DNA of 64,000 nucleotides from a virus. Position numbers and translations under genes: made by a program. Positions 3,564 to 62,164 of the stretch are shown in pieces. The notes beneath the pieces were generated by a model. It was not told the DNA's origin. It saw nothing but the letters and a program-made list of their open reading frames with translations, and made no database searches. The stretch is taken from positions 1 through 64,000 of the IMG/VR virus record IMGVR_UViG_3300023245_000006; one strand, written 5' to 3'. Within the stretch, counting starts at the first letter, position 1. Each line of letters starts with the position of its first letter.

Positions 3564-3614
3564 AAATAAAAAATAATTTTTGAAATGTGGACGGAATTAT
3601 GTAAATATAAACAC

Positions 3615-6600
3615 ATGTCAAAAGAATTTCTAAGCAATCTAGTCCACCACCGAACCTACGCAAAATATCTCCCAGAACACCAAAGACGAGAAACCAAATA
3701 TGAGACGATTACTCGAAATTTGGAAATGCACTGCAAAAGATTTCCACATCTTAGAGAAGAAATCACCAAAGCCTATGATCCCGTTTATAAAGAAATGGCG
3801 ATCCCTGCTATGCGAGCATTGGAAGATAGTACCCCGATTAGAACAGATATCGGATGGTCGATAGTCGGTGAGATAAAAACTGGTGATATGATTTTTGACT
3901 CCATAGGTGAACCAACATGTGTGGAAAAGGTTTTAAAATTTGATAACGTAGATTTATATGATGTATGTTTTAGTGATGGATCAAAATTAACATCATGCGA
4001 TGAACATCTATGGGTAGTTGCATCTGCTGATGATAGACTTTCTGGAAAAACGCGCATTGTAACAACAAAGCATATAAAAGAACATTTAACCCAAGGAAAG
4101 GTTAATAATTTTTGTATATATAATCCAAAGCCCATCAAACTACCTCATAAAGAACTATTTATAGATCCATATATAATGGGTTTATGGCTTGGTGATGGAT
4201 ACTCACCAGAATACCAATATTCAAGTAGTGTCGAAGACTCTTCGTTCTTCTCCGAACAATATAAAAATGCTGGATATGAAGGAATACAAAGTAAATCAAC
4301 CAACATATGGACTTGGACATGTCGTGGACTTTCTACCGATTTATGCAAATATGATTTAATAAATAATAAACATATTCCACAAGAATATCTCAATGGATCT
4401 ATTGAGCAGAGATTGTCGCTATTACAGGGTCTTATCGATTCCGATGGCTGTATAGATAAGAACGGAAAGGTACATTTTTCTAACACAAATAAAAAAATGA
4501 TTTCTGGTATCGTAGAACTCATATCGAGTTTAGGAATAAAATATACTCAGGAAGATATAAAACCAAAAAGTGAAAACCATAAACCGTCTCATATTATTAG
4601 GTTCACATCCGGCCTCGAAATCTCCAGATTACCTAGAAAGAAAGAAAATATAAGAAAAGATATATTGAAACAAACAGAACATAGAAAAATTATATCTGTA
4701 GATTTTGTTAAAAAAGGATCAGCAACATGTTTTGTTGTTTCTTCACCAGATAGAACATTTCTCGCTGGTAGGGAAATGATTGTGACTCATAATTGTATGC
4801 AATTTAGTGGTGAACCAATCGAACGGCGACAAAATCGCGCATTTAATTGTACATTTTTAAATATCACAAAATTTGTCGATATGGCTGATCTTTTTTATCA
4901 ATCGATGTCTGGTGCTGGTGTTGGTTATAGTGTTAAACAAAGGCACATTTCCCAATTACCGATTATTAGTGATGGTATTAATACCGAGAAATTCGTTATC
5001 CCCGATTCTGCGGAGGGTTGGTCAAATAGTTTGATTAAACTTCTCGAAAATCCTGATATACAATTTGATTATTCCCAAATTAGATTGATGGGCGAACCAT
5101 TATCTACAGGAGGCACGGCATCGGGTCCAAAATCGTTGATTCATATGCACTCGAATATTAGACAAATTTTACGAAAATCTATCGGTAAACAATTAACATC
5201 CTTCGAGACTCATCGGATTTGTTGCCTCATTTCAGATTGCGTGGTAGTGGGAGGTGTTAGGAGGTGCTTGTTGGGGACTGACGACGTTCTCACAGACCGT
5301 GGGTGTGTAAAACTTAGGGACGTAAAAAATGGAGACATGGTATTAACTCACAAGAATAGGTTTCAAAAAGTTGTTTCAAAAGTTAACAATGGCAGTAGAA
5401 ATCTACTTGAAATAAAAACAAACATTGGCTCTTTCTTTTCTACGGAAAACCATAAGTGGATTACTGCAACTGACCTATATGGAGGCGTATCGGAAAAACT
5501 GGCAAATGAACTTGGCGTGGAAGACACTTTGGTTTTTAATAAAACTAAAATCGAGGGAACAGAAACCCAAATGCCATCATCGCTTGAATATACCCCACCA
5601 GAGTTAACCGAAGATACGGCATGGTTTGTTGGATACTTTCTTGGGAACGGTTCATGCTCTGTTAGAAAACGTGCAGATAATGCAAACTTGGATTGTAAGT
5701 TTAGAATTGCTGCTCCCAAAAATTACCCAAAAATAATTGAAAAAATTCAAAATATATTTCCACTCTTTATCAAAACTATTTCACTATATGAAAGAAAAAA
5801 AGTGGTAGAGTTCACTACGAGTAGAGGAAATATCGCAAAATGGGGGCTGGAAAACCTAAAACAACCCAATTCTCCCATAAAAATTCCTACTTGGATAATG
5901 CAAGCCAGAGAAGAGATAAGAATGGCGTTCATTGCAGGAATTCTGGATAGTGACGGTACCGTAAGAAATGAAACAACAGAAGATGGCATTGGCACTGGTC
6001 AAGTTGCCATTGTTTCAACAAAATACGAAAATTTTGCAAAAGAATTACAATCCCTTATCTCTCTTAGTGGCATTCCCACAAGAAGGTTAGTTAAACACAG
6101 AGAGCAAAAATCGGACGAACATATAATAAAATCCATATCTTCTAGTTTTAGAAATATACTTGTAGAAAAAATTAGTGACTATTCCATAAAAATAGCTCAT
6201 GACTACGTGGTTACTAAAAAAAGCAGAGAAAGTAGCGGTCTCTCGTTTCTGAAAAACCTTGCATCAAAGCACGGAGAAAAATACAATTTGTGGAATAATA
6301 ACCCGCACATCTCTTATGAAATAATGCAAGAAAAGCAAGCCGTAGACTTTATACCAGTCAATATCTTGGGGGTATTGAAGACGAACATGGAGGAAGAAGT
6401 TTTTGATATCGAAGTGGAAGAGGATCATTCATTTTTCATTAATGGAATACTAACCCACAATTCAGCAACAATCGTGTTATTCGATCCCGAAGATACTGTC
6501 ATGCTGAACTGCAAGTCTGGAAAATGGTGGGAAAAATATCCAGAATTGGCCCGAGCCAATAATTCAGCAGTCGTTAATCGCGCAGATCCACAATCGGAAG

Positions 6601-7649
6601 AAAAGGCTCGCATGATTATTGATGCATGTTTCGCGGGTGGTCAGGCAGAACCAGGATTGGTTTGGACCAACCACGATGATGCCGGACTAAATCCATGCGC
6701 AGAAATTTCTTTTTCTGGCTCCGTGGGAGGATTTGGTGTTTGTAACTTAACTGAGGTTAATGCGTCCAAATGTTTATCAAAAGAAGATTGGTTAAAGGCG
6801 GTAGAAACTGCTACAATTATCGGTACACTTCAAGCATCTTATACCAACTTTTCTTACATCCAGCCAGAATGGAAGAAAAATGCCGAACAGGAATCACTTT
6901 TGGGTGTTTCCATTACCGGACAAGCCGAAAATATTGCTATTTTAACCCCTGAAAATTTACAAGAAGGTGCGAAACTAGCAGTCGAAATTAATAAAAAATG
7001 GGCTGAAAAAATAGGTATTAATCCGGCTAAACGTATTACGTGTGTTAAACCATCAGGAACAGCCTCGTCATGGTTAGGAACTACGGCAGGAATCCATGCA
7101 GGTCATGCTATCAAATATCTACGGAGAGTCCGATTAGATAAGGAATCGAAATTGGGAAAGGCACTACAAAGATACTTCCCTAATTTCATCGTGCCCGACA
7201 CATTTAAAGAGGGTGATATTATTATACAAATTCCTATCAGTATGTATGAGACGACACTACTTCGAACACAGGAAACATCCATTCAGTTGTTAGAACGTAT
7301 GAAAAACGTATATGATAATTGGATTCTACCGGGGCATGTCGAAGGGGATAATACCCACAACGTAAGTCTAACAGTCAGCTACCATGAACATGAGAAGAAT
7401 AATATTAAAGAATGGATGATCGAAAATCGAGAATCCTACATTGGTATTAGTCTGATTCCGTTCGATGGTGGTGACTATGCATATTTGCCATATAGTCAAC
7501 CACCACACCCAGAAGTGTTCGATATTCTCGAAAAATCCTTTAAACAATGCGAAAAAAACTTTAAATTTGAAAATATCAAAGAAAAGAAGGATATGACCGA
7601 GCATAAAAATGAAGCGGCATGTGCGGGTGGTGCATGTCTCTTAGATTAA
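3615..7649 (+). CDS. nrdJ: Class II (AdoCbl-dependent, monomeric-type) ribonucleotide reductase with two inteins; spliced product ~619 aa
   Basis: RTYA, RRET, PAMR|CMQF, AFNC, GAGVG, GGVRR|SA, NPCAEI, CNLTE, TCVKPSGT motifs and C-terminal ACAGGAC. Confidence 0.92.
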   Translation: MSKEFLSNLVHHRTYAKYLPEHQRRETKYETITRNLEMHCKRFPHLREEITKAYDPVYKEMAIPAMRALEDSTPIRTDIGWSIVGEIKTGDMIFDSIGEPTCVEKVLKFDNVDLYDVCFSDGSKLTSCDEHLWVVASADDRLSGKTRIVTTKHIKEHLTQGKVNNFCIYNPKPIKLPHKELFIDPYIMGLWLGDGYSPEYQYSSSVEDSSFFSEQYKNAGYEGIQSKSTNIWTWTCRGLSTDLCKYDLINNKHIPQEYLNGSIEQRLSLLQGLIDSDGCIDKNGKVHFSNTNKKMISGIVELISSLGIKYTQEDIKPKSENHKPSHIIRFTSGLEISRLPRKKENIRKDILKQTEHRKIISVDFVKKGSATCFVVSSPDRTFLAGREMIVTHNCMQFSGEPIERRQNRAFNCTFLNITKFVDMADLFYQSMSGAGVGYSVKQRHISQLPIISDGINTEKFVIPDSAEGWSNSLIKLLENPDIQFDYSQIRLMGEPLSTGGTASGPKSLIHMHSNIRQILRKSIGKQLTSFETHRICCLISDCVVVGGVRRCLLGTDDVLTDRGCVKLRDVKNGDMVLTHKNRFQKVVSKVNNGSRNLLEIKTNIGSFFSTENHKWITATDLYGGVSEKLANELGVEDTLVFNKTKIEGTETQMPSSLEYTPPELTEDTAWFVGYFLGNGSCSVRKRADNANLDCKFRIAAPKNYPKIIEKIQNIFPLFIKTISLYERKKVVEFTTSRGNIAKWGLENLKQPNSPIKIPTWIMQAREEIRMAFIAGILDSDGTVRNETTEDGIGTGQVAIVSTKYENFAKELQSLISLSGIPTRRLVKHREQKSDEHIIKSISSSFRNILVEKISDYSIKIAHDYVVTKKSRESSGLSFLKNLASKHGEKYNLWNNNPHISYEIMQEKQAVDFIPVNILGVLKTNMEEEVFDIEVEEDHSFFINGILTHNSATIVLFDPEDTVMLNCKSGKWWEKYPELARANNSAVVNRADPQSEEKARMIIDACFAGGQAEPGLVWTNHDDAGLNPCAEISFSGSVGGFGVCNLTEVNASKCLSKEDWLKAVETATIIGTLQASYTNFSYIQPEWKKNAEQESLLGVSITGQAENIAILTPENLQEGAKLAVEINKKWAEKIGINPAKRITCVKPSGTASSWLGTTAGIHAGHAIKYLRRVRLDKESKLGKALQRYFPNFIVPDTFKEGDIIIQIPISMYETTLLRTQETSIQLLERMKNVYDNWILPGHVEGDNTHNVSLTVSYHEHEKNNIKEWMIENRESYIGISLIPFDGGDYAYLPYSQPPHPEVFDILEKSFKQCEKNFKFENIKEKKDMTEHKNEAACAGGACLLD
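3816..4793 (+). mobile_element. Intein 1 of NrdJ (326 aa), Ala-starting class-3 type with LAGLIDADG endonuclease
   Basis: Starts ALEDSTPI, DEHLW (Trp), ATCFVV (Cys), VTHN|C end; WLGDG and LQGLIDSDG motifs. Confidence 0.88.
5265..6461 (+). mobile_element. Intein 2 of NrdJ (399 aa), canonical Cys-start with LAGLIDADG endonuclease
   Basis: CLLGTDDV...TENHKW...IAGILDSDG...VFDIEVEEDHSFFINGILTHN|S, inserted in GGVRR|SA. Confidence 0.9.
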
Positions 7650-14511: not shown

Positions 14512-15384
14512 ATGAATAATAGACTAAACACCGTTGCCATAGTTGGATCGAATGGATATATTGGACAATATTTCACCAAATATCTTTCAGAAATGGGATC
14601 TAACCTTGTGCACATCGGCAGAGATTTTACAAAAGAAGATGTTAAAGGAGCAACATTTTTAATCAATTGTGCCGGATTCACCGGAAAACCAAACGTCGAT
14701 GCCTGCGAAGATCAAAAATTGGAATGTTTTAAAGGGAACGCCGAATTACCTTTTCATATAGGTAATATATGTAAAACTTTGGGTATTCCGTGGGGTCACA
14801 TATCTTCTGGGTGTATTTATCACGGAACCAAAGAAGATGGAACCGGATTCACCGAGACCGATAAACCAAATTTTGCATTTGATTCGAAAGAACCTTGTAG
14901 TTTTTATAGTGGAACCAAGGCAGTAGGGGAAGAAACGATCCGAGATATGGAATGTTATATATGGAGACTTAGAATTCCTTTCAATTCCGATATTGACAAC
15001 ACTCGAAATTATCTTTATAAGTTGTTGAATTACAACAAATTGCTAAATGTTAGAAATTCGATTTCACATATTGGGGATTTTGTCAAGGCATCTATAGAAT
15101 GTGTGGAAAAGGAAATCCCATTTGGAATATATAACGTGGTCAATGGGGATATCACGACCGAAGATATTATTAAAATTTTCGGAAGAACCAAATATTTTAC
15201 AGAAAAGGGATTTTCATTCTATAACAGCGAAGAAGAATTCAACAAAACTATCAGAGCACCAAGATCTTCTTGTGTATTGAGCAACGAAAAATTATTTAGA
15301 CATGGTATCGAAATGCGGTCTGTTGATGAAGCACTAGAAGAATCGATCAACAAATATATAAATAAAAGGATCAATGAACTATGA
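14512..15384 (+). CDS. NAD-dependent nucleotide-sugar epimerase/reductase (RmlD-like, 3,5-epimerase/4-reductase type)
   Basis: GSNGYIG Rossmann motif, AGFTGKPNVDACE, SSGCIY, YxxxK (YSGTK). Confidence 0.85.
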   Translation: MNNRLNTVAIVGSNGYIGQYFTKYLSEMGSNLVHIGRDFTKEDVKGATFLINCAGFTGKPNVDACEDQKLECFKGNAELPFHIGNICKTLGIPWGHISSGCIYHGTKEDGTGFTETDKPNFAFDSKEPCSFYSGTKAVGEETIRDMECYIWRLRIPFNSDIDNTRNYLYKLLNYNKLLNVRNSISHIGDFVKASIECVEKEIPFGIYNVVNGDITTEDIIKIFGRTKYFTEKGFSFYNSEEEFNKTIRAPRSSCVLSNEKLFRHGIEMRSVDEALEESINKYINKRINEL

Positions 15385-15647
15385 AAACGATAAAAATTGG
15401 AACGGTTAAAAAAAGAGACCCACTTATCCCTTGGGTTGGGATGTGTTTTATATGTCCAGAATGTGAAGGAATGTTTGAATTCGAAATAAAAGATTTTAAG
15501 AATTATTCTGATAATCATGACAGATTTTTTAAATGTGAGACACCACACTGTGACGAATATATCTACCTACAAACAAATCCAACCAAAATTATAAATTTTC
15601 GGGGTGAAAATATCGAAGTTTCTAAAAACAGTATTGACAAATGGTAA
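15381..15647 (+). CDS. Hypothetical protein, possible Zn ribbon
   Basis: CPEC and CETPHC; ATGA coupling to the upstream gene. Confidence 0.55.
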   Translation: MKTIKIGTVKKRDPLIPWVGMCFICPECEGMFEFEIKDFKNYSDNHDRFFKCETPHCDEYIYLQTNPTKIINFRGENIEVSKNSIDKW

Positions 15648-15868: not shown

Positions 15869-15952
15869 ATATCGTGGACCGAATCAAATTTAGGAATTTA
15901 AAGACATGAATAAAAAACGTTGTAGAGAAAAATAAAAGAATCATAGAATTAT

Positions 15953-17575
15953 ATGGACAAAGAAATTATATTAAAAAAATACGGTAGGATTTATAGACTT
16001 TATCCTACAAAGGATCAAATCAAAATTTTCCAAGATTGGCAAAATGGTGCCAGAGCATATGGCAATGAAATTTTATGGAATCAAACAGTTTCGGAAAGAT
16101 TTTTCGATGAAAAGAAACGAGATATCGTCGAACTTAAAATAAAGGCACTTACCGATGTTGGAAAAACCGAAGAAGAAATTAAGGTTCTAAAAGATAAAGA
16201 CTTCTGGGTTACTATTAATAACCAACTCTCGGACCAATATCCGATCAAAGACGCGATTCGTAATGGTTTTAAAGAAATCAGGACAGAATTAACCATAGAT
16301 AAGAAGGGACCAGATCGAGAACTTTTAGATAAGATTATATTAGAAAGATATCCCAATTATGTTGATCTAAAAGATTCATCTAAAAGTTATCTGGGTGCAT
16401 GTGGAGAGGGAGGAATGTATAAGGTCGGAACCGGAAAATATAAACTACCTTCGGCACTGGTCATAGGGATTTTAAAATCTAATGATAAGGCATGGACCAC
16501 GTTCTACGAAATTTGTAAGAACGGAAAAAGTGTTCAACATCTCGTTGGTGCAAAAAAGAAAAAAGCCGCAAAAGGAAAGAGAGTTGATAATTTCGGAAAA
16601 CCCAAGTTTATGAAAAAGTGGGAAATTCCTAATCTTTTATTTTCTACCGGAAATCTGAAAGGACCGAATTTTGAAAAACAACAGGTATTTATTCAAACTT
16701 TGAAGACACCGATCAAGGCAAAATTAGATGTTTATCCCATAGGGATTATCACTTCTTATACAGTTTCAAATATAGGTAAGAAGTGGTTTATTTCTTATGG
16801 TCTAAAGACCAATGTAATAGAACCAGAACATCAACACATCGAATCACAGGTAGGGCTAGATTTGGGTGTAACCAAATTCTTGACCACCACCGATAGTTCC
16901 CAAAAGACCCGAATTTTTGAATTAGACAAAACCTCTAAGAAAAGACTGGCGATTTTGAAAAATCGGGTGAAGATGATCCAGACGATTATTTCGAGATTAG
17001 AACGAGCCGAACCGATGAACTATATAGAAATCAACTGGAAACTAAAAATGTCCGACAAGACAAATCCAGATTATAAACATTTCCAGAGACATAGTAATAA
17101 TTGGTTTAGATCAAATCAAAAACTGGTTGAAACGAAATATAAAATCAATGAAATTTTGAAAAATTTTAGACATCATGTTTCTAATGTGATCACCGATAAA
17201 TATGGAACCATCGGGATAGACAATCTACAAATTTCTAACATGACCAAATCCGGTAAAGGAACCAAAGATGAACATGGTAAAAATGTTAAACAAAAGGCAG
17301 GTCTGAATAGGTCGATCTTGGAACAGGGTTGGGGAATTTTTAATAACCAATTGAAATATAAGGCATCATGGAGAGGTGCAAAGGTTATCGAAATCGATCC
17401 TAAATACACTTCCCAGACATGTCCCGACTGTGGACACGTTTCCAGAGACAATAGAAAGACACAGGCAAAGTTCGAATGCATTGATTGTGGACATAGTGCC
17501 AATGCCGATGTGGTAGGATCACAAAATAATTTGAAAAAGATTAATAAAAAGGTTGCAATACCTGAGACTTTGTAG
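15953..17575 (+). CDS. CRISPR-associated TnpB-derived compact Cas12-like (type V) effector, 540 aa
   Basis: N-terminal YRLYPTKDQ, RuvC-I VGLDLG (D303), RuvC-II IGIDNL (D423 where E is usual), KAGLNRSILEQGW, YTSQTCPDCG...FECIDCG Zn finger, RuvC-III NADVVG (D519); adjacent tracrRNA candidate and CRISPR array. Confidence 0.88.
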   Translation: MDKEIILKKYGRIYRLYPTKDQIKIFQDWQNGARAYGNEILWNQTVSERFFDEKKRDIVELKIKALTDVGKTEEEIKVLKDKDFWVTINNQLSDQYPIKDAIRNGFKEIRTELTIDKKGPDRELLDKIILERYPNYVDLKDSSKSYLGACGEGGMYKVGTGKYKLPSALVIGILKSNDKAWTTFYEICKNGKSVQHLVGAKKKKAAKGKRVDNFGKPKFMKKWEIPNLLFSTGNLKGPNFEKQQVFIQTLKTPIKAKLDVYPIGIITSYTVSNIGKKWFISYGLKTNVIEPEHQHIESQVGLDLGVTKFLTTTDSSQKTRIFELDKTSKKRLAILKNRVKMIQTIISRLERAEPMNYIEINWKLKMSDKTNPDYKHFQRHSNNWFRSNQKLVETKYKINEILKNFRHHVSNVITDKYGTIGIDNLQISNMTKSGKGTKDEHGKNVKQKAGLNRSILEQGWGIFNNQLKYKASWRGAKVIEIDPKYTSQTCPDCGHVSRDNRKTQAKFECIDCGHSANADVVGSQNNLKKINKKVAIPETL

Positions 17576-17581
17576 TAATAT
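17553..17581 (+). promoter_or_regulatory. Sigma70-like promoter for the tracrRNA candidate
   Basis: TTGCAA-N17-TAATAT overlapping the effector stop codon. Confidence 0.55.
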
Positions 17582-17587
17582 ACAAAT

Positions 17588-17780
17588 ATGTCGATGCTCA
17601 ATCGATCAAGGCGTTCGACAAAGGTAAAACTTTGTGAGCCATTAGGGTAAAACCTATTAGGACCAGAACGAAGTGGGAAGGTAACAACCCACATCTACCG
17701 AGAACGGTAGAATCATATTCAAAAGATACTGCGAACCTCTGAGGTTCTAAAAGGCCAAAGAGGTTCGCAGTTTTCTTTAT
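17588..17780 (+). ncRNA. Putative tracrRNA (omegaRNA-derived scaffold)
   Basis: Anti-repeats CTCAATC (17597-17603) and AATCATATTCA (17711-17721) are complementary to the repeat 3' half; several hairpins; terminator at the 3' end. Confidence 0.72.
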
Positions 17781-17781
17781 T
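17728..17781 (+). terminator. Rho-independent terminator ending the tracrRNA candidate
   Basis: 13-bp inverted repeat ACTGCGAACCTCT/AGAGGTTCGCAGT followed by TTTCTTTATT. Confidence 0.7.
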
Positions 17782-17902
17782 TACTACAATTCAACGATTT
17801 ATAACGAAAACATGAAAGAAAAAAATGAAAATTGCAAAAATCTACAGGTTAGCGAAAATGAGAATGCAACCCATTACAAGGCAATAGATTGTAATGGGTG
17901 CC
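17782..17902 (+). promoter_or_regulatory. CRISPR leader
   Basis: A-rich; 11-bp inverted repeat ACCCATTACAA/TTGTAATGGGT (17869-17899) 3 bp before repeat 1. Confidence 0.65.
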
Positions 17903-18467
17903 CTAACAATAGAGTTTAGAGAATGAATATGATTGAGAGCTTCTCACCGGCTTTCTCCCCAAATGCTTTCCGACTAACAATAGAGTTTAGAGAATGAATA
18001 TGATTGAGAGTCATCGCCTTGAAGATACTAACAAAAGAGTTTAGAGAATGAATATGAATGAGAGCTTATCACACCAAGTCTTGGTGGACGGTCGGCGACT
18101 AACAATAGAGTTTAGAGAATGAATATGAATGAGAGCAGAGCGGGTGGCAGATCAGGCCGCAGATATGACTAACAATAGAGTTTAGAGAATGAATATGATT
18201 GAGAGGTATTGCCAGTTCGGGCAACAGCCCTTGTTTAACCTAACAATAGAGTTTAGAAAATGAATATGATTGAGAGTCATCGCCTTCAAGATGCTAACAA
18301 TAGAGTTTAGAAAATGAATATGATTGAGAGGAGGCATCGACAATCCAAATCAATACACTGCCCTCTAACAATAGAGTTTAGAGAATGAATATGATTGAGA
18401 GAACGGCCCTTAGTAGATTGACCGTGGTGACTAACAATAGAGTTTAGAAAATGAATATGATTGAGAG
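17903..18467 (+). CRISPR. CRISPR array: 9 repeats of 37 bp (CTAACAATAGAGTTTAGAGAATGAATATGATTGAGAG), 8 spacers of 34, 17, 34, 33, 34, 17, 34 and 29 bp
   Basis: Repeats start at 17903, 17974, 18028, 18099, 18169, 18240, 18294, 18365 and 18431 with 0-2 substitutions; 3' end ATTGAGAG resembles the common ATTGAAAN end. Confidence 0.97.
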
Positions 18468-18477
18468 TAGCTAAAAT

Positions 18478-19194
18478 ATGAAAAAAAATAAAACATGGAC
18501 CAAAAAAGATGAGAAATTTCTGATAGATAATTATCGGATTAATGGTCTAAAATACTGCATGAATCACCTGAAAAGATCCGCACCATCTATCGTTAACCGA
18601 TCATTTTTACTAAACCTACAAAAAAAACATAAAGATAATCATGGCAGACCTTCCATACCGATAACCCTAAAATATATAGATGGAACAATAAAAACTTTCC
18701 CGAGTCGGAAAATCTGTTCCAAAGAAACCGGAATAAGACTAACAGAGTTCTCACTACTTTTAAAAAATTGTAACCGAAGTATAAATGGTTGGTATAATCC
18801 GGTCAAATTAGAAACCCCTATATACCTATATGATCCCGATGATAATATACATGCGGTTGATCATATATTAGAGTTCTGTTTAGAACATGGTCTCGAACCC
18901 AATATCATTGTAAGAATGATAAAAGGAACGGTTTTTTATTATAAAGGGTTCAGAAAGATCGAAACACCAAAAAAACCAAAAAATCTTAAAAGATGGGATA
19001 TTTTAATATCTCCCGATAAAAAGGAATATATTGTCCATAACATCGCGGCATTTTCTAGAGATATGGGAATCCATAAACAAGGATTCTACAAATTAAAATA
19101 TGATAATAGGTTATATAATAAAGGGTGGTTATGGGCAGATACCGTGCTGAAAGAATATAACAAAGGAAATAAATATGAAACCGTGGAAATCTAG
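18478..19194 (+). CDS. Basic protein with homing-endonuclease-associated DNA-binding modules (NUMOD/IENR-like); no clear nuclease domain
   Basis: WTKKDEKFLIDNY N-terminus; repeated (Y/I)xPD...xxFxxExGL...xKG(W/F) modules. Confidence 0.6.
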   Translation: MKKNKTWTKKDEKFLIDNYRINGLKYCMNHLKRSAPSIVNRSFLLNLQKKHKDNHGRPSIPITLKYIDGTIKTFPSRKICSKETGIRLTEFSLLLKNCNRSINGWYNPVKLETPIYLYDPDDNIHAVDHILEFCLEHGLEPNIIVRMIKGTVFYYKGFRKIETPKKPKNLKRWDILISPDKKEYIVHNIAAFSRDMGIHKQGFYKLKYDNRLYNKGWLWADTVLKEYNKGNKYETVEI

Positions 19195-48762: not shown

Positions 48763-49215
48763 TTAAGAAAGTAATTTTATTAGATTTGTTGTATAATCCA
48801 TAAACCCATTTCGTTCCATAGAACCATCTGGAAAAATTATATATATTTTTTTATTTTTCTTTTTAGAGTATCGGATGGTTGCCCATGTTCCTGATCTAAC
48901 TTGTTCGATTTTACTACTAGGACATGCTATCATGATATTCGATGCGTCCACAATATCATGATTCCTTGCAAGATATTCTTTAGATTCGAGAACAACTCCA
49001 TCCTCACAAAACGATCTTTTAATCTCGTTGATCGGTGGATGGATAATAATCTTACCGGACGAGACTTCTTTATAAATATTATGAGCATCCGTATCTGCTC
49101 CGATACAGTCTCCATGATGAAATTCAACAGAGACTATATCAGAAAAGATACTTAGAACAACGTGCTTTTGCTCGTTACTCATACCAACTTGATTACCAGT
49201 AAATCCAAATTTCAT
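48763..49215 (-). CDS. SLOG/DprA-like nucleotide-binding protein
   Basis: GFTG, HHGDCIGAD, RNHDIVD, SGTWATIRY. Confidence 0.75.
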   Translation of the reverse strand: MKFGFTGNQVGMSNEQKHVVLSIFSDIVSVEFHHGDCIGADTDAHNIYKEVSSGKIIIHPPINEIKRSFCEDGVVLESKEYLARNHDIVDASNIMIACPSSKIEQVRSGTWATIRYSKKKNKKIYIIFPDGSMERNGFMDYTTNLIKLLS

Positions 49216-50321
49216 GATTTTTTAAGGACTTGCCAAAAAATCTTTATGATTTGATCATGTGTTAAATTTTTTCCATCCAATTTAGAGAAACAAAAAGACG
49301 CTCTATTTGTTGGACCATATGATTCTATAATCATCTGGGCTTGTTCTTTTCTCGTTTTTAAATTTTTTATAGTTCTTACGAAATCATTAATATGATCTAA
49401 TATTCGATTCACTTCTTTTGCACCATCAGATAGTCTCGAAATTTGACCACGGAGTTGTTCTGCAATCTCATGATCGAAGCTAGTTTCGATCAGGTTGTAA
49501 AAACCTTGGTAATCAGGCATATCATTTTTGACATAGAATTGAATCAGGTTATTTTCAGAAGATAATTCGGACTTGATTCGATGTTTTACAAGGTAGGCAT
49601 CAGCTTTGGTTTTTTTCAAAACTTGACCATTATTTCCATAAATAACTATACCCTCACCCTTTGTCCATTTTTCTACATCGTTCACCATATCTTCGATGGA
49701 GGGAAACAAATAACGAGATGGTCGTTTAACCCCAAAAGAAATAGCCACATCATCTAATTTGTCTTGTATAATATACGTATAGTGTGGGTGTTCTACGATT
49801 CCGGTCAACCACAATTCGGGTTCCAAACTTTCACGCTCCACTATTATATTTACTGGAGAATACCATTCACATATAATAGAATATCCTTCACTATCCAACA
49901 AATCATTATCAAACAATCTAGGATATTTATCTTTGAGAATCGGTATTTCGTAACCGTTTTCCATCGTTGATTCGGCATCAACCGTTCCTCGGGTTCGCAC
50001 GATTAATTCTTTTTTAAATTTGGATATAATCAAAGCCGAACCATCCATCTTACGAATATATTCAATATCACCTTTAATATTTAAAGGTTCGAACTCTGGT
50101 TGCTCTGGTAAATTTGTAAATTTTCTATAAGATGCGCTCACGAGTTCGCCATCTTCGGTCCATATGGAACTTCTGAAATATTTGTTGGTTTCATCCCACT
50201 TGACACCAATTTGTCGGGGGAATATAAGTTTACACGTTGTATTTGATATAATACAATCTCGTATATAAAACTCTTCTTCTGATGGAAACCTGTCAATTTT
50301 CATACCGTCTATATTATCCAT
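49212..50321 (-). CDS. RNA ligase, T4 Rnl1-like
   Basis: KFTN, KMDGS, RTRG, EWYSP.NIIV, EGIV. Confidence 0.8.
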   Translation of the reverse strand: MDNIDGMKIDRFPSEEEFYIRDCIISNTTCKLIFPRQIGVKWDETNKYFRSSIWTEDGELVSASYRKFTNLPEQPEFEPLNIKGDIEYIRKMDGSALIISKFKKELIVRTRGTVDAESTMENGYEIPILKDKYPRLFDNDLLDSEGYSIICEWYSPVNIIVERESLEPELWLTGIVEHPHYTYIIQDKLDDVAISFGVKRPSRYLFPSIEDMVNDVEKWTKGEGIVIYGNNGQVLKKTKADAYLVKHRIKSELSSENNLIQFYVKNDMPDYQGFYNLIETSFDHEIAEQLRGQISRLSDGAKEVNRILDHINDFVRTIKNLKTRKEQAQMIIESYGPTNRASFCFSKLDGKNLTHDQIIKIFWQVLKKS

Positions 50322-56956: not shown

Positions 56957-58342
56957 TCATTGAGAAATCTGTGGTGCCCTGTTGGACAACAACGATTCCA
57001 TTGGTTTTTGAGCCTGACGGACTATAAGCTCGTCAGTGGGAGGACTGGAACTGTTCCAATAGAACCCGGAACGGTTCCAGTGTTGCTCCCGAGCAGCCTT
57101 CGGCAATAAAGGAAGGTCAAGGCTAATGTTCACGGAGCCATTCATATCTGCATTCTGTGCGTTTCCGCACCCTTTGCAAACGAACTGTTCTCCGCGTCTA
57201 TTAGCCTTCTGCACCCATCCGCAGCACGAACATCGCTGGCTGGTAAACATCGGATTTACCTCAGACACTTGGACGCCAAGTGATTGAGCCTTTTGTTTAA
57301 CGGCGTTTAGTAGCTTTGTTGCGCTCCAGTGAGAAAGTGATTTTGAGGTTCGGCGACCTCGCTTTAGATGTTTGATGCGTTCCACGCGAACAGACGCGAC
57401 TCCCGTGAAATTGAGCCGATTTACGGATTCGCCCACGAAGTTTCGGCAGTGTGATTCGGCGCGTTTAAAGCCGTCACTCCCGCGCTTGCATCGCGCCATC
57501 TTATTGTTTATATCTTTGAGGGACCATCCGTGGTTTCCCGTTTTGATCTGTGAACCATCACTCACCGAAAAGATGGACGTTTGCCCGATGTCAATGCCTA
57601 TTGCGGGAACAATTCCTATTGCGGGAACAACTCCTATTGAGGAAAGAGTCAATTCCGCAGGTTGCGGCTCTGGAATCTCAAAGGATAACGAGACCTCTGT
57701 TTTGGACATTCGAACGCTATTGAGGCGCGTTCCAGTCTCTTGTATGGAGTTAAAATGCTTGTGGTAATTTAGAGGAATTAGCAACTTCTCGCCGCGAATG
57801 CCCGTTGGGCCTCCTACAACCTTGGTGTCTTTTACGCCCGTGGTGTCCTTTGTGCCCTTGGCACCCCTCAAACTCTTGATCGTAAGCCACGCATCAAAAC
57901 TCGTTGAAATAGAAGGGTTTAGATCGAAGAATCTGCTATCTAGTTGAGCCTCAACGTGATTCGTTGCTGGACAAGAGACCTTGTTTTTTTCAATGATTGC
58001 TCGCAGAACCCGTGCCTTCTTGTGTTGCCCTGCTTTTTCAAACTCCTTTACTTGCCATTCTCTGCGCTTATTCTTCGCAAGACTGCCATTGGCAATGCCA
58101 CTAGATTGTTTCGCGGCACACTGAATTGCTCTCGCAGAAAGCCAAGTTTGAACGTTCGTAATCTCGCCGCTAGGCATCTGTTGTACTTGCTTCCCATCGT
58201 TCAGCTCGTGCCAAAACCGCCCCACGAATTCTGTCACGACGCGTGCATATTCGTCTAGGAATTCAGCAACCTTTTCGCTTTTATGAGCGTTAGCGAATTT
58301 AAGCGTTAGCCGAGACGAACGGATGTTGCGTTTTTTCTTCAT
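56957..58342 (-). mobile_element. tnpB: Solo TnpB RNA-guided endonuclease (461 aa); no transposase nearby; higher GC than its flanks
   Basis: IGIDIG, VRVERI, FTSQRCSCCG, FVCKGCG, NADMNGSVNI; D-E-D triad intact. Confidence 0.88.
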
Positions 58343-60724: not shown

Positions 60725-62164
60725 TTAAATTGTTACTTGATTGTATCGTTCTGCATTTATGGTTTCCAACATGACATCCAGCGGAGAGATAGTGTTACCC
60801 GAAAGCAACGTCTTCAAGATAGATGGCGAACACCCGCTTACGAGACATGTTCCCTTATCATCCTTGGTGATCGGTGACTGACTGTTTCGGGCATTGACAT
60901 TCCAGAACACCAAGTTTGGTTGCACATATCCTGCTGCTTCATACTTGAGACGGGTAGCCTCATAGTTTGTAACAGACTGTCCACGACAAGCCATATCGAA
61001 TTCCATATCCGAAACAATGTAGAGGGTATCAGGCATATCTTCCTGCGGAACATCATTCCGCATTCCTGTAGTAAGAATCAGATCGAACGTTGCTTGCAAG
61101 TTAGTAGACATATCCCAATCCGCCCTTTCAAGGTTCTGAACCTTCTCTCGAATATTGTTTCCAACAACAGATTGAAGTGTTGGGGTTTCGGAGAACGTGA
61201 AGAACTTGTTGGCAAAGGCACCCTTGTTCTTTTCGGCAAAATAAATTGCCAAAGAGATAGAGACTGCCATTGGTCTGCCAGTCATGCTACCGCTCACATC
61301 CGCAATAACGATTCCGTTGTGCTTGTTCTCTCCGATATAATCAGGTAGAGCATCCCAAAGGACATCCAAAGTATCACTCTTATCACATCGATTCAGAATC
61401 TTTTCAACAATTTCGTAAGGATACAATGTAGATGCATTGATCTTAGTTTCACCCTTCTTAACTGCCGCCAAAAAGTTTTCATAACGTTCCTTATCGTGCT
61501 TACGGAAGGCATCTTTATAGGTCAAAGATGCCTTCGAAGGAACATGAGAATATTCGATCTGGTCCCACTTGTTTGCACAAAGAAGAGGCTCAACAACCTT
61601 TGTCTTCTCACGCATATGAGAAAGAGTTTGACGGTATTCCTTAGATGATAGTCCAAGGTGCTTACGCAAAATCGTAGCAAGTCGTCTAGTTGACTTAGAA
61701 GAAGTATTTTCCGAACAAGACCATTTGAAGATTAGAGAGTTCGTCTCGAACCCCTTGTTCCACTCATTACCCCAAAATTCTAGAGCCTTGTCCCAAGACT
61801 TGGTTCCTTCCAAGAAAAAAAGATCATCATATCGACCATAGAACACGATGTTTTCTAGATTATTTACGACAATAGTTGGATACTCATTGCCCAACCACTT
61901 GATGATTGTTCGGAAAGTCTTACGCTCGCCCATTCCCCCTCGGGCGTCACGGAAATAAAACATGGTTTTTAGAGCCAGTTCTTGATCTTCGGCAAATGCC
62001 TTAGAAAACAAGGAAATAACATCTTCATCAGAACGAGAACGCATAGCACCACCTAGACCAAAGAAATCCAATAGATTACTCAAAGTAGACTTGTGAGTAA
62101 AGGCACCATTCTCGGTTAGAGTGAAATTTTGGTTCTTTTCGATAGAGTTGATTAGTGAGTTCAT
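60725..62164 (-). CDS. DUF2828-family vWA-domain protein (TROVE/Ro-like architecture)
   Basis: TENGA, RD.RGG.GER, GRYDDL, LYPYEI, MIDAS DVSGSM, SDMEFD, VFWNV, VSGCSP. Confidence 0.85.
   Translation of the reverse strand: MNSLINSIEKNQNFTLTENGAFTHKSTLSNLLDFFGLGGAMRSRSDEDVISLFSKAFAEDQELALKTMFYFRDARGGMGERKTFRTIIKWLGNEYPTIVVNNLENIVFYGRYDDLFFLEGTKSWDKALEFWGNEWNKGFETNSLIFKWSCSENTSSKSTRRLATILRKHLGLSSKEYRQTLSHMREKTKVVEPLLCANKWDQIEYSHVPSKASLTYKDAFRKHDKERYENFLAAVKKGETKINASTLYPYEIVEKILNRCDKSDTLDVLWDALPDYIGENKHNGIVIADVSGSMTGRPMAVSISLAIYFAEKNKGAFANKFFTFSETPTLQSVVGNNIREKVQNLERADWDMSTNLQATFDLILTTGMRNDVPQEDMPDTLYIVSDMEFDMACRGQSVTNYEATRLKYEAAGYVQPNLVFWNVNARNSQSPITKDDKGTCLVSGCSPSILKTLLSGNTISPLDVMLETINAERYNQVTI

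Follow-up and report, generated by a model that had tools for sequence, protein, structure and literature searches.

A probable phage-encoded, adaptation-less type V-like CRISPR module with a TnpB-derived effector

A TnpB-like gene followed at close range by a CRISPR array in a phage genome raises the question of whether the two form one RNA-guided system and, if so, whether the protein is a transposon nuclease, a member of a named Cas12 subtype or a separate capture of TnpB. The locus considered here lies at positions 15953-18467 of the first 64,000 nucleotides (the window) of IMG/VR virus record IMGVR_UViG_3300023245_000006, a linear record of 96,703 bp whose completeness is estimated by CheckV at ~46%; all searches for missing genes cover that sequenced ~46% only. 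The locus holds a gene for a 540-amino-acid (aa) protein, P0001, then a structured RNA with an anti-repeat, a terminator, an AT-rich leader and an array of nine repeats. All parts of the locus, from the gene through scaffold, anti-repeat, terminator and leader to the array, lie in one orientation within 2.5 kb, and such arrangements have published precedents. The locus is considered to be probably a type V-like CRISPR module that is encoded by the phage, is adaptation-less and belongs to the TranC (transposon-CRISPR intermediate) kind; a domesticated TnpB would be its effector and the structured RNA would act as trans-activating CRISPR RNA (tracrRNA). An initial annotation of the window had named a 540-aa RuvC/zinc-finger protein, a structured RNA with an anti-repeat, a leader and a nine-repeat array, all of which were recovered in place; its description of a minimal, phage-borne type V anatomy of the tracrRNA type is borne out by an RIIA gene in the record, by the array and by the candidate scaffold.

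P0001 (15953-17575, +) belongs to the TnpB/Cas12 superfamily; it has a RuvC fold with an inserted zinc ribbon of four cysteines (CCCC) and an N-terminal half composed of WED and REC regions, as read from Pfam, NCBIfam, alignment and an AlphaFold2 (AF2) model. The protein matches the Pfam families Cas12f1-like_TNB (PF07282, E 1.6e-22) and OrfB_IS605 (PF01385, E 1.5e-09) and scores 167 bits against the NCBIfam model guided_TnpB (cut-off 100); it lies below every subtype-specific NCBIfam cut-off, with 99 bits of the required 425 for IS200_TnpB, 97 of 350 for c2c8, 77 of 350 for IS607_TnpB, 61 of 450 for Cas12f2 and 31 of 200 for Cas12e. P0001 is ~140 aa longer than TnpBs of ~400 aa and carries ~180 aa of lineage-specific insertions in all, namely ~85-100 aa in the N-terminal helical/REC region, ~28 aa in the WED and ~30 aa after the bridge helix; insertions in the N-terminal half and after the bridge helix had been noticed in the initial annotation, and alignment against ~400-aa TnpBs confirms both and adds the one in the WED. 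The C-terminal tail usual in TnpB relatives is missing, the protein ending 21 residues after D519. The AF2 model, made from a 150-sequence alignment, has a mean pLDDT (predicted score in the local distance difference test) of 80.7 and a confident helix up to residue 535; the low-confidence segments, 85-121 and 139-153, both lie inside the REC insertion. Its top structural match is ISDra2 TnpB (PDB 8h1j and 8exa; Z 21.4, root-mean-square deviation 3.5, 356 of 362 residues aligned), followed by ISFba1 TnpB (Z 20.4), Fanzor2 (Z 19.4) and Cas12p, Cas12f and Cas12m (Z 15-17); matches to LaTranC (PDB 9jfo/9jfq, Z 13.3-14.4) and to CasPhi and Cas-lambda (Z ~13-14) are weaker. As modelled, P0001 comprises a complete TnpB core plus lineage-specific insertions.

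Relatives of P0001 were sought among ~5.8 billion clustered proteins and, by exhaustive phmmer, among 1.84 billion representatives. The best non-self matches in the larger set reach 190 bits at 35-39% identity and cover the C-terminal 51% only, and the best phmmer match scores 200 bits, with no closer representative of a cluster of its own. Residues ~263-540 share 35-41% identity with InsQ-type TnpBs; these are indeed the best match of the C-terminal half, yet at that distance it cannot be called very close to them, as it had been. In the N-terminal 262 residues nothing significant was found except for the first beta-strand, and no full-length relative above 34% identity was found among the ~5.8 billion proteins or 1.8 billion representatives. 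The sole full-length kin, at 34% identity, are two uncharacterised metagenomic proteins: P0174 (550 aa, from a 1.8-kb contig), which aligns end to end with P0001 at 29% by BLASTP (E 3e-51), and P0293 (562 aa, from a 33.5-kb ENA contig), which was found with the N-terminal half of P0174 as query. The enlarged REC region is common to all three. Searches for full-length relatives in IMG/VR with each of the three as query, and in JGI metagenomes with an alignment of P0001 and P0174, found none beyond the phage's own genome.

The 80 genome loci with the best C-terminal matches to P0001 (L004-L083) hold ordinary proteobacterial TnpBs of insertion sequence (IS) type. In FastTree trees P0001, P0174 and P0293 group together (support 0.99 for the pair and 0.93 for the trio), nested among ~400-aa TnpBs, and the tip branch of P0001 is long; ISDra2 TnpB is matched by P0001 at 40 bits, against 159 bits for P0004, an ordinary 392-aa TnpB of the surrounding clade. 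Because P0001 nests among ordinary TnpBs, and because P0004 outscores it against RdCas12n (PDB 9j09; 114 bits for P0004, 102 for P0001 and 49 for its sister P0174), an origin of P0001 separate from the named Cas12 subtypes compared is likely on present sequence evidence. The independent origin proposed initially is upheld in this sense, since the trio lies among ordinary TnpBs and no NCBIfam Cas12 cut-off is reached; comparisons by family model, sequence, structure and catalytic residues set P0001 outside Cas12n, Cas12f, Cas12j, Cas12L and TldR, gave a weaker match to Cas12m than to TnpB and returned no close TnpB kin. It is plausible that the lineage is undescribed, as no named family was matched, with the numbered TranC clades and Cas12r compared by description only.

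The region downstream of the effector holds a candidate tracrRNA, an omegaRNA-like scaffold of several hairpins at 17588-17785 (+), identified by its fold, an anti-repeat and an inverted repeat, with its ends inferred. Positions 17540-17790 fold with a minimum free energy of -83.9 kcal/mol, against -48.3 kcal/mol for shuffled sequences (z -8.2; 0 of 200 shuffles as good). The first hairpin (17591-17605) has the loop GCTCA, which is able to pair with TGAG in the tail of the repeat, and the further stems include a hairpin at 17698-17715. An exact 11-nt anti-repeat at 17711-17721, on the same strand, is the complement of repeat positions 21-31; exact complements of at least 11 nt to the repeat occur in 3 of 578 control windows of 330 nt from the same genome (p ~0.005). 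Directly after the anti-repeat stands a terminator hairpin (17721-17778, 20-nt arms) followed by a T-run; the only Rfam match, which falls on this hairpin, is microRNA-like and was taken as chance. The 37-nt repeat alone barely folds (-2.7 kcal/mol), and since it has no stable hairpin of its own a self-folded CRISPR RNA (crRNA) handle like that of Cas12a or Cas12r is unlikely, which fits dependence on a tracrRNA.

Expression of the helper RNA and of the array would require promoters, for which candidate sites can be read from the sequence. The putative helper-RNA promoter TTGCAA-N17-TAATAT (17553-17581, +) overlaps the end of the open reading frame (ORF), and the AT-rich leader (17786-17902, +; guanine-cytosine (GC) content 0.32) contains the promoter-like site TTGCAA-N16-GAAAAT at 17832-17859 and a hairpin at 17867-17891 just 5' of repeat 1. 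The pattern TTGCAA-N16-18-KAAWAT has two matches in the 64-kb window, both in the locus; the pattern was derived post hoc from these two sites, which hint only faintly at promoters. A scan for the sigma-70 consensus reported no promoter for scaffold or array.

The array (17903-18467, +), found by repeat search, consists of nine 37-nt repeats and eight spacers and starts 327 nt after the effector stop codon, within the 330 bp given in the initial annotation. The spacers measure, in order, 34, 17, 34, 33, 34, 17, 34 and 29 nt, and repeats 3, 4, 6, 7 and 9 carry point changes. Spacer GC content (0.41-0.61, against 0.365 for the phage) is foreign-looking; values near 50% suggest that the hosts or rival elements from which the spacers would derive are much richer in GC than the phage. 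The two 17-nt mini-spacers, at 18011-18027 (+) and 18277-18293 (+), differ at two positions; they are half the normal length, and each stands in a 91-nt repeat-spacer-repeat unit, the two units being 93% alike. They may serve as guides, either in regulation or against two alleles of a single target, or may stem from an internal duplication that has since diverged. Spacers had no match in the phage's own 96.7 kb, nor had a mini-spacer in the window. Cas1, Cas2 and Cas4 were not detectable anywhere in the 96.7-kb record, which also gave no match to Y1 TnpA (PF01797) or to a serine recombinase (PF00239) and holds no second copy of the CRISPR repeat or scaffold; the initial statement that no cas1, cas2, cas4 or tnpA is adjacent can be extended to the whole record.

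The omegaRNAs of related TnpB elements can be compared with the phage scaffold. In 34 related proteobacterial elements the omegaRNA is well conserved, with compensatory changes in 19 of 24 predicted pairs; a first hairpin, whose loop, GGACA, is complementary to the tail ahead of the guide, is followed by a multi-stem body and a variable hairpin, and the 3' part runs from a 9-bp covarying terminal stem through a 9-nt tail (GGATGTCAA) into the guide. Insertions of 20-30 nt occur in the terminal loop of five relatives (L011, L014, L022, L073 and L076). The omegaRNAs of L004-L083 end in the invariant GAGGATGTCAA; in L047 the tail is changed to GACGTC while the first-hairpin loop is changed from GGACA to GGACG, a paired change that would fit base pairing of that loop with the guide-proximal tail in a pseudoknot. 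The order of elements in the phage parallels that of the relatives: first hairpin, stems, an 11-bp stem of anti-repeat and repeat, a 6-nt tail (GAGAG) and spacer. It is from this architecture that the phage scaffold might be read as a split omegaRNA.

On the proposed mechanism, a TnpB would have been domesticated by gaining the REC, WED and post-bridge-helix insertions and losing its transposase partner, and the structured RNA 3' of the stop codon would have replaced the old omegaRNA scaffold and would serve as tracrRNA. The anti-repeat at 17711-17721 would pair with positions 21-31 of each repeat in vivo, rebuilding the guide-proximal terminal stem of TnpB omegaRNAs, and the guide presented would run from the final 6 nt of the repeat through the first ~17-20 nt of the spacer. 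The ribonucleoprotein would then find complementary DNA flanked by a protospacer-adjacent motif (PAM), probably in a rival mobile element, phage or host of ~50% GC, and this target would be cut, or blocked if Asp423 weakens catalysis. Acquisition of spacers would need Cas1-Cas2 from the host or from the unsequenced half of the phage.

The residue at position 423 bears directly on the last step. The RuvC residues of P0001 are D303, D423 and D519, the second of which is usually glutamate, and the four cysteines of the zinc ribbon are kept; the protein is therefore D-D-D where the canonical triad is D-E-D. Its RuvC-II motif reads IGIDNL against the usual IxIEDL, with IDN in place of EDL, so that Glu is replaced by Asp and the next Asp by Asn. 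The RuvC-II glutamate is present in 147 of 150 aligned homologues, and both full-length kin, P0174 and P0293, keep EDL. The exact P0001 sequence is found on 14 contigs, the longest of 126 kb, in JGI, ENA and Logan data; since the identical protein recurs in this way, neither the ORF nor Asp423 is an assembly error. That P0001 is a binding-only or slowed enzyme is a live alternative which, judged from its sequence, is nonetheless unlikely. The natural D423, set against a D423E form, could show how much catalysis such systems need.

Several results weigh against the module as proposed here. The predicted duplex of repeat with intergenic region has an energy of -18.2 kcal/mol, which is within the genomic background (mean -16.7, standard deviation 2.4). 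A covariance model built on the omegaRNA of the relatives (R1; 131 positions, 25 pairs), calibrated and run with filters off, gave no match above noise in the locus; nhmmer of the scaffold against the 80 TnpB loci gave no match either. No protospacer was found by blastn of the whole array against isolate phages, PLSDB plasmids and complete E. coli genomes, or by searching three spacers as exact 22-24-mers in IMG/VR. Exact repeat scans of IMG/VR and JGI metagenome contigs found no match and no variant array beyond the phage's own genome, and the catalytic centre has aspartate where glutamate is near-invariant. The view that the transition from TnpB was a recent one, also taken initially, is not supported: the N-terminal 262 residues are diverged, the tip branch is long and the ISDra2 TnpB score is 40 bits against 159; in addition, the GC content of the gene (0.351) equals that of the phage (genome 0.365), and the relatives' omegaRNA model finds nothing in the locus.

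Four other accounts of the locus have to be set against this module. It may be the same module with an attenuated nuclease, that is, an RNA-guided DNA binder comparable to Cas12m, Cas12c, Cas12k or TldR, which would silence genes and use the 17-nt spacers as dedicated regulatory guides. The Glu-to-Asp and Asp-to-Asn replacements at a site where homologues and both kin are so uniform, and a pair of half-length spacers that differ at 2 of 17 positions, would fit such a role, and both TnpB and Cas12 are known to have given rise to repressors (PMC13565253). Asp, however, is a conservative and still metal-binding replacement, and P0001, unlike TldR or Cas12k, keeps D303, D519 and the four cysteines of the zinc ribbon; the mini-spacers, moreover, have no target in the phage itself. 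Natural TnpB guides are ~16 nt long, and at that length a 17-nt spacer need not be a non-cleaving one. A binder is accordingly a serious but unlikely reading. It is distinctly improbable that the trio P0001, P0174 and P0293 represents both an uncatalogued TnpB capture that would merit a new type V subtype and a division of labor in which the D-D-D effector would be a programmable binder or slow nickase, with the two 17-nt guides silencing a gene of the host or of a rival element and the full-length spacers serving interference.

The lineage may instead be catalogued already, as one of the ~24 TranC clades (Jin et al. 2025) or as a CRISPR-associated TnpB branch (Altae-Tran et al. 2023, doi 10.1073/pnas.2308224120), so that the locus would add a phage example only. 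Public data from JGI, ENA and Logan contain P0001. Both of these surveys reportedly mined metagenomes for CRISPR-adjacent TnpBs on a large scale. Two of the TranC clades, 11 and 20, are described with enlarged REC and WED regions, and clade 20 resembles the P0001 locus in size, in repeats and in having no adaptation genes. LaTranC, the sole TranC sequence compared, is however matched at E 0.15 and Z 14.4, well under TnpB; the billions of proteins searched contain no relative above 34% identity, and exact scans of IMG/VR and JGI metagenome contigs did not find the repeat. Prior cataloguing is thus a possibility to be kept in mind, though a doubtful one. Coincidence or decay, meaning that array and TnpB-like gene travel together without being related or that the system has lost its function, is very improbable: missing protospacers, the non-canonical catalytic residue, the point changes in five repeats and a second, unrelated TnpB-like gene of the phage that has no array could be cited for it, but the ORF is unbroken and recurs unchanged on 14 contigs, all parts from the gene to the array share one orientation in 2.5 kb, no further copy of the repeat exists in the record and spacer lengths are regular. 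A TranC-type module encoded by the phage is retained as the probable reading.

The carrier is a large T4-like lytic phage. That the locus is phage-borne is supported by the provenance of the record in IMG/VR and by its gene content, which includes RIIA (phrog_612, E 5.5e-118), an intein-bearing class II ribonucleotide reductase and an Rnl1-type RNA ligase; an ArdC-like anti-restriction protein is also encoded. Directly 5' of the effector ATG, at 15930-15952 (+), a repeat-family search found the 23-nt motif AAATAAAAG..ATCA..GAA.TAT, which is common to three gene starts (15360-15382, 15484-15506 and the effector at 15930-15952). The motif is probably a translation-initiation or promoter-proximal signal of the phage, and its occurrence at neighboring gene starts suggests that the effector gene is expressed through signals that the phage also uses for its other genes.

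On the other side of the array, an ORF at 18478-19194 (+) starts 10 nt past the last repeat and weakly matches an HNH endonuclease (phrog_2081, E 1.4e-5); a homing endonuclease possibly borders the CRISPR module. Elsewhere in the window, the ribonucleotide reductase (1354 aa; 3585-7649, +) is split by two intein/LAGLIDADG regions (Pfam LAGLIDADG_3, Hom_end and Intein_splicing). A TROVE/Ro60-like protein (60725-62164, -; DUF2828 and DUF7788, E 1e-39 to 1e-49) and the Rnl1-type ligase (49212-50321, -) are encoded further along, pointing to an RNA-repair gene set in the phage, and an 881-aa phage protein had no match among isolate phages. The second TnpB-like gene, P0121 (461 aa; 56957-58342, -), has a Pfam TNB match (E 1.7e-17) and scores 80 bits against NCBIfam guided_TnpB, under the cut-off of 100. 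It is unrelated to P0001, the two sharing 44% identity over 61 aa only; it keeps the RuvC-II Glu (VRVERIK), and its Gly/Ala/Arg-rich composition is unlike the rest of the phage. P0121 has no array, and the 300 nt downstream of it are not unusually structured (z -1.35).

Compact TnpB-derived effectors matter as a record of how type V CRISPR systems originated from transposons and as small scaffolds for genome editing. The locus adds a very rare lineage with its own accretion of domains (REC, WED and post-bridge-helix) and with a complete helper RNA and array.

Among known systems, the IS200/IS605 InsQ-type TnpBs are closest to P0001 in sequence (up to 200 bits), with the GKNVxQKxGLNRSIL loop and the CCCC zinc ribbon in common, and ISDra2 TnpB is closest in structure, nearly all of it being covered by the match. 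P0001 differs from InsQ-type TnpBs in its three insertions, in the missing C-terminal tail and in an N-terminal half that cannot be aligned by sequence; the phage locus differs in having neither TnpA nor IS ends, in drawing its guides from an array and in a scaffold RNA that ends in a terminator, not running into a guide. A mobile IS200/IS605 or IS607 element was rejected, as the ~46%-complete record holds no TnpA and no further copy of scaffold or repeat, and the omegaRNA model has no match.

In Cas12n (V-N, formerly V-U4/c2c9) the tracrRNA lies within the stretch that encodes a disordered C-terminal tail (PMC12216341). The PAM of Cas12n is 5'-AAN. RdCas12n, also 540 aa, heads the solved structures matched by sequence (E 2e-28); both are compact effectors near TnpB, tracrRNA-dependent in Cas12n and putatively so here, with a WED-region insertion at the same site and a GK...LVG-like stretch. 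P0001, however, ends 21 residues past D519, and its scaffold lies beyond the stop codon. Membership in Cas12n was rejected because the C-terminal tail is absent and the P0004 control outscores P0001 (114 against 102 bits); this control indicates that the resemblance reflects common TnpB stock, chiefly the GKNV..QK.GLNR loop. RdCas12n is absent from the Foldseek and VIA-align lists, which is no evidence either way. Matches to Cas12f, c2c8, Cas12e, CasPhi, Cas-lambda, Cas12m and LaTranC are all weaker than those to TnpB. Cas12f (V-F) was rejected on family models under their cut-offs, on 44-56 bits for Cas12f chains in the PDB and on Z 15-17 against 21 for TnpB; TldR was rejected because D519 and the four cysteines are retained and guides come from an eight-spacer array, not from a single adjacent guide RNA. 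CasPhi (Cas12j) and Cas-lambda (Cas12l), already set aside in the initial annotation, are confirmed as poor fits by weak sequence and fold matches: they are tracrRNA-independent proteins of 700-800 aa, whereas P0001 has 540 aa, scores 32-38 bits against CasPhi in the PDB and stands beside a candidate tracrRNA.

Cas12r-CRISPR of Thermus Lalka phages, a further phage-encoded TnpB-derived effector followed by a short array, has a 564-aa protein from a thermophile-only TnpB branch, lacks adaptation genes, is thought to borrow acquisition from the host and has a proposed role in conflict among mobile elements (bioRxiv 10.64898/2026.04.20.719267). Compared by description, it differs in being tracrRNA-free with 29-bp I-E-like repeats, against 37-nt repeats and an anti-repeat scaffold in the present locus.

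The greatest likeness is to TranC systems, the transposon-CRISPR intermediates that include the active, phage-borne CauTranC9 of Caudoviricetes (Jin et al., doi 10.1016/j.cell.2025.09.004; PMC13565253; bioRxiv 10.64898/2026.03.27.714800). As summarised in the latter two, their tracrRNA arose by "functional RNA splitting" of an omegaRNA, clade 20 has a mean of 513 aa, 36-38-bp repeats and no adaptation genes, and the REC and WED regions are enlarged in clades 11 and 20. The shared features are a TnpB-derived effector nested among transposon TnpBs, a short array without adaptation genes nearby, a tracrRNA (in the phage a candidate one) in the place of the omegaRNA or right-end element RNA (reRNA) with an anti-repeat that rebuilds, or here would rebuild, the guide-proximal stem, repeats of 36-38 bp (37 nt here), enlarged REC/WED regions in some clades and at least one active example in a Caudoviricetes genome. 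The phage locus is unlike TranC in that LaTranC is remote (E 0.15), in the RuvC-II Asp of P0001 and in a scaffold with no detectable homology to the omegaRNA of the nearest TnpB relatives. Independent captures of TnpB, splitting of the RNA, arrays without adaptation genes and carriage by phages have all been published, and this picture is unchanged; particular to the locus are the rare lineage of three proteins, the pattern of insertions, the RuvC-II Asp and the twin 17-nt spacers.

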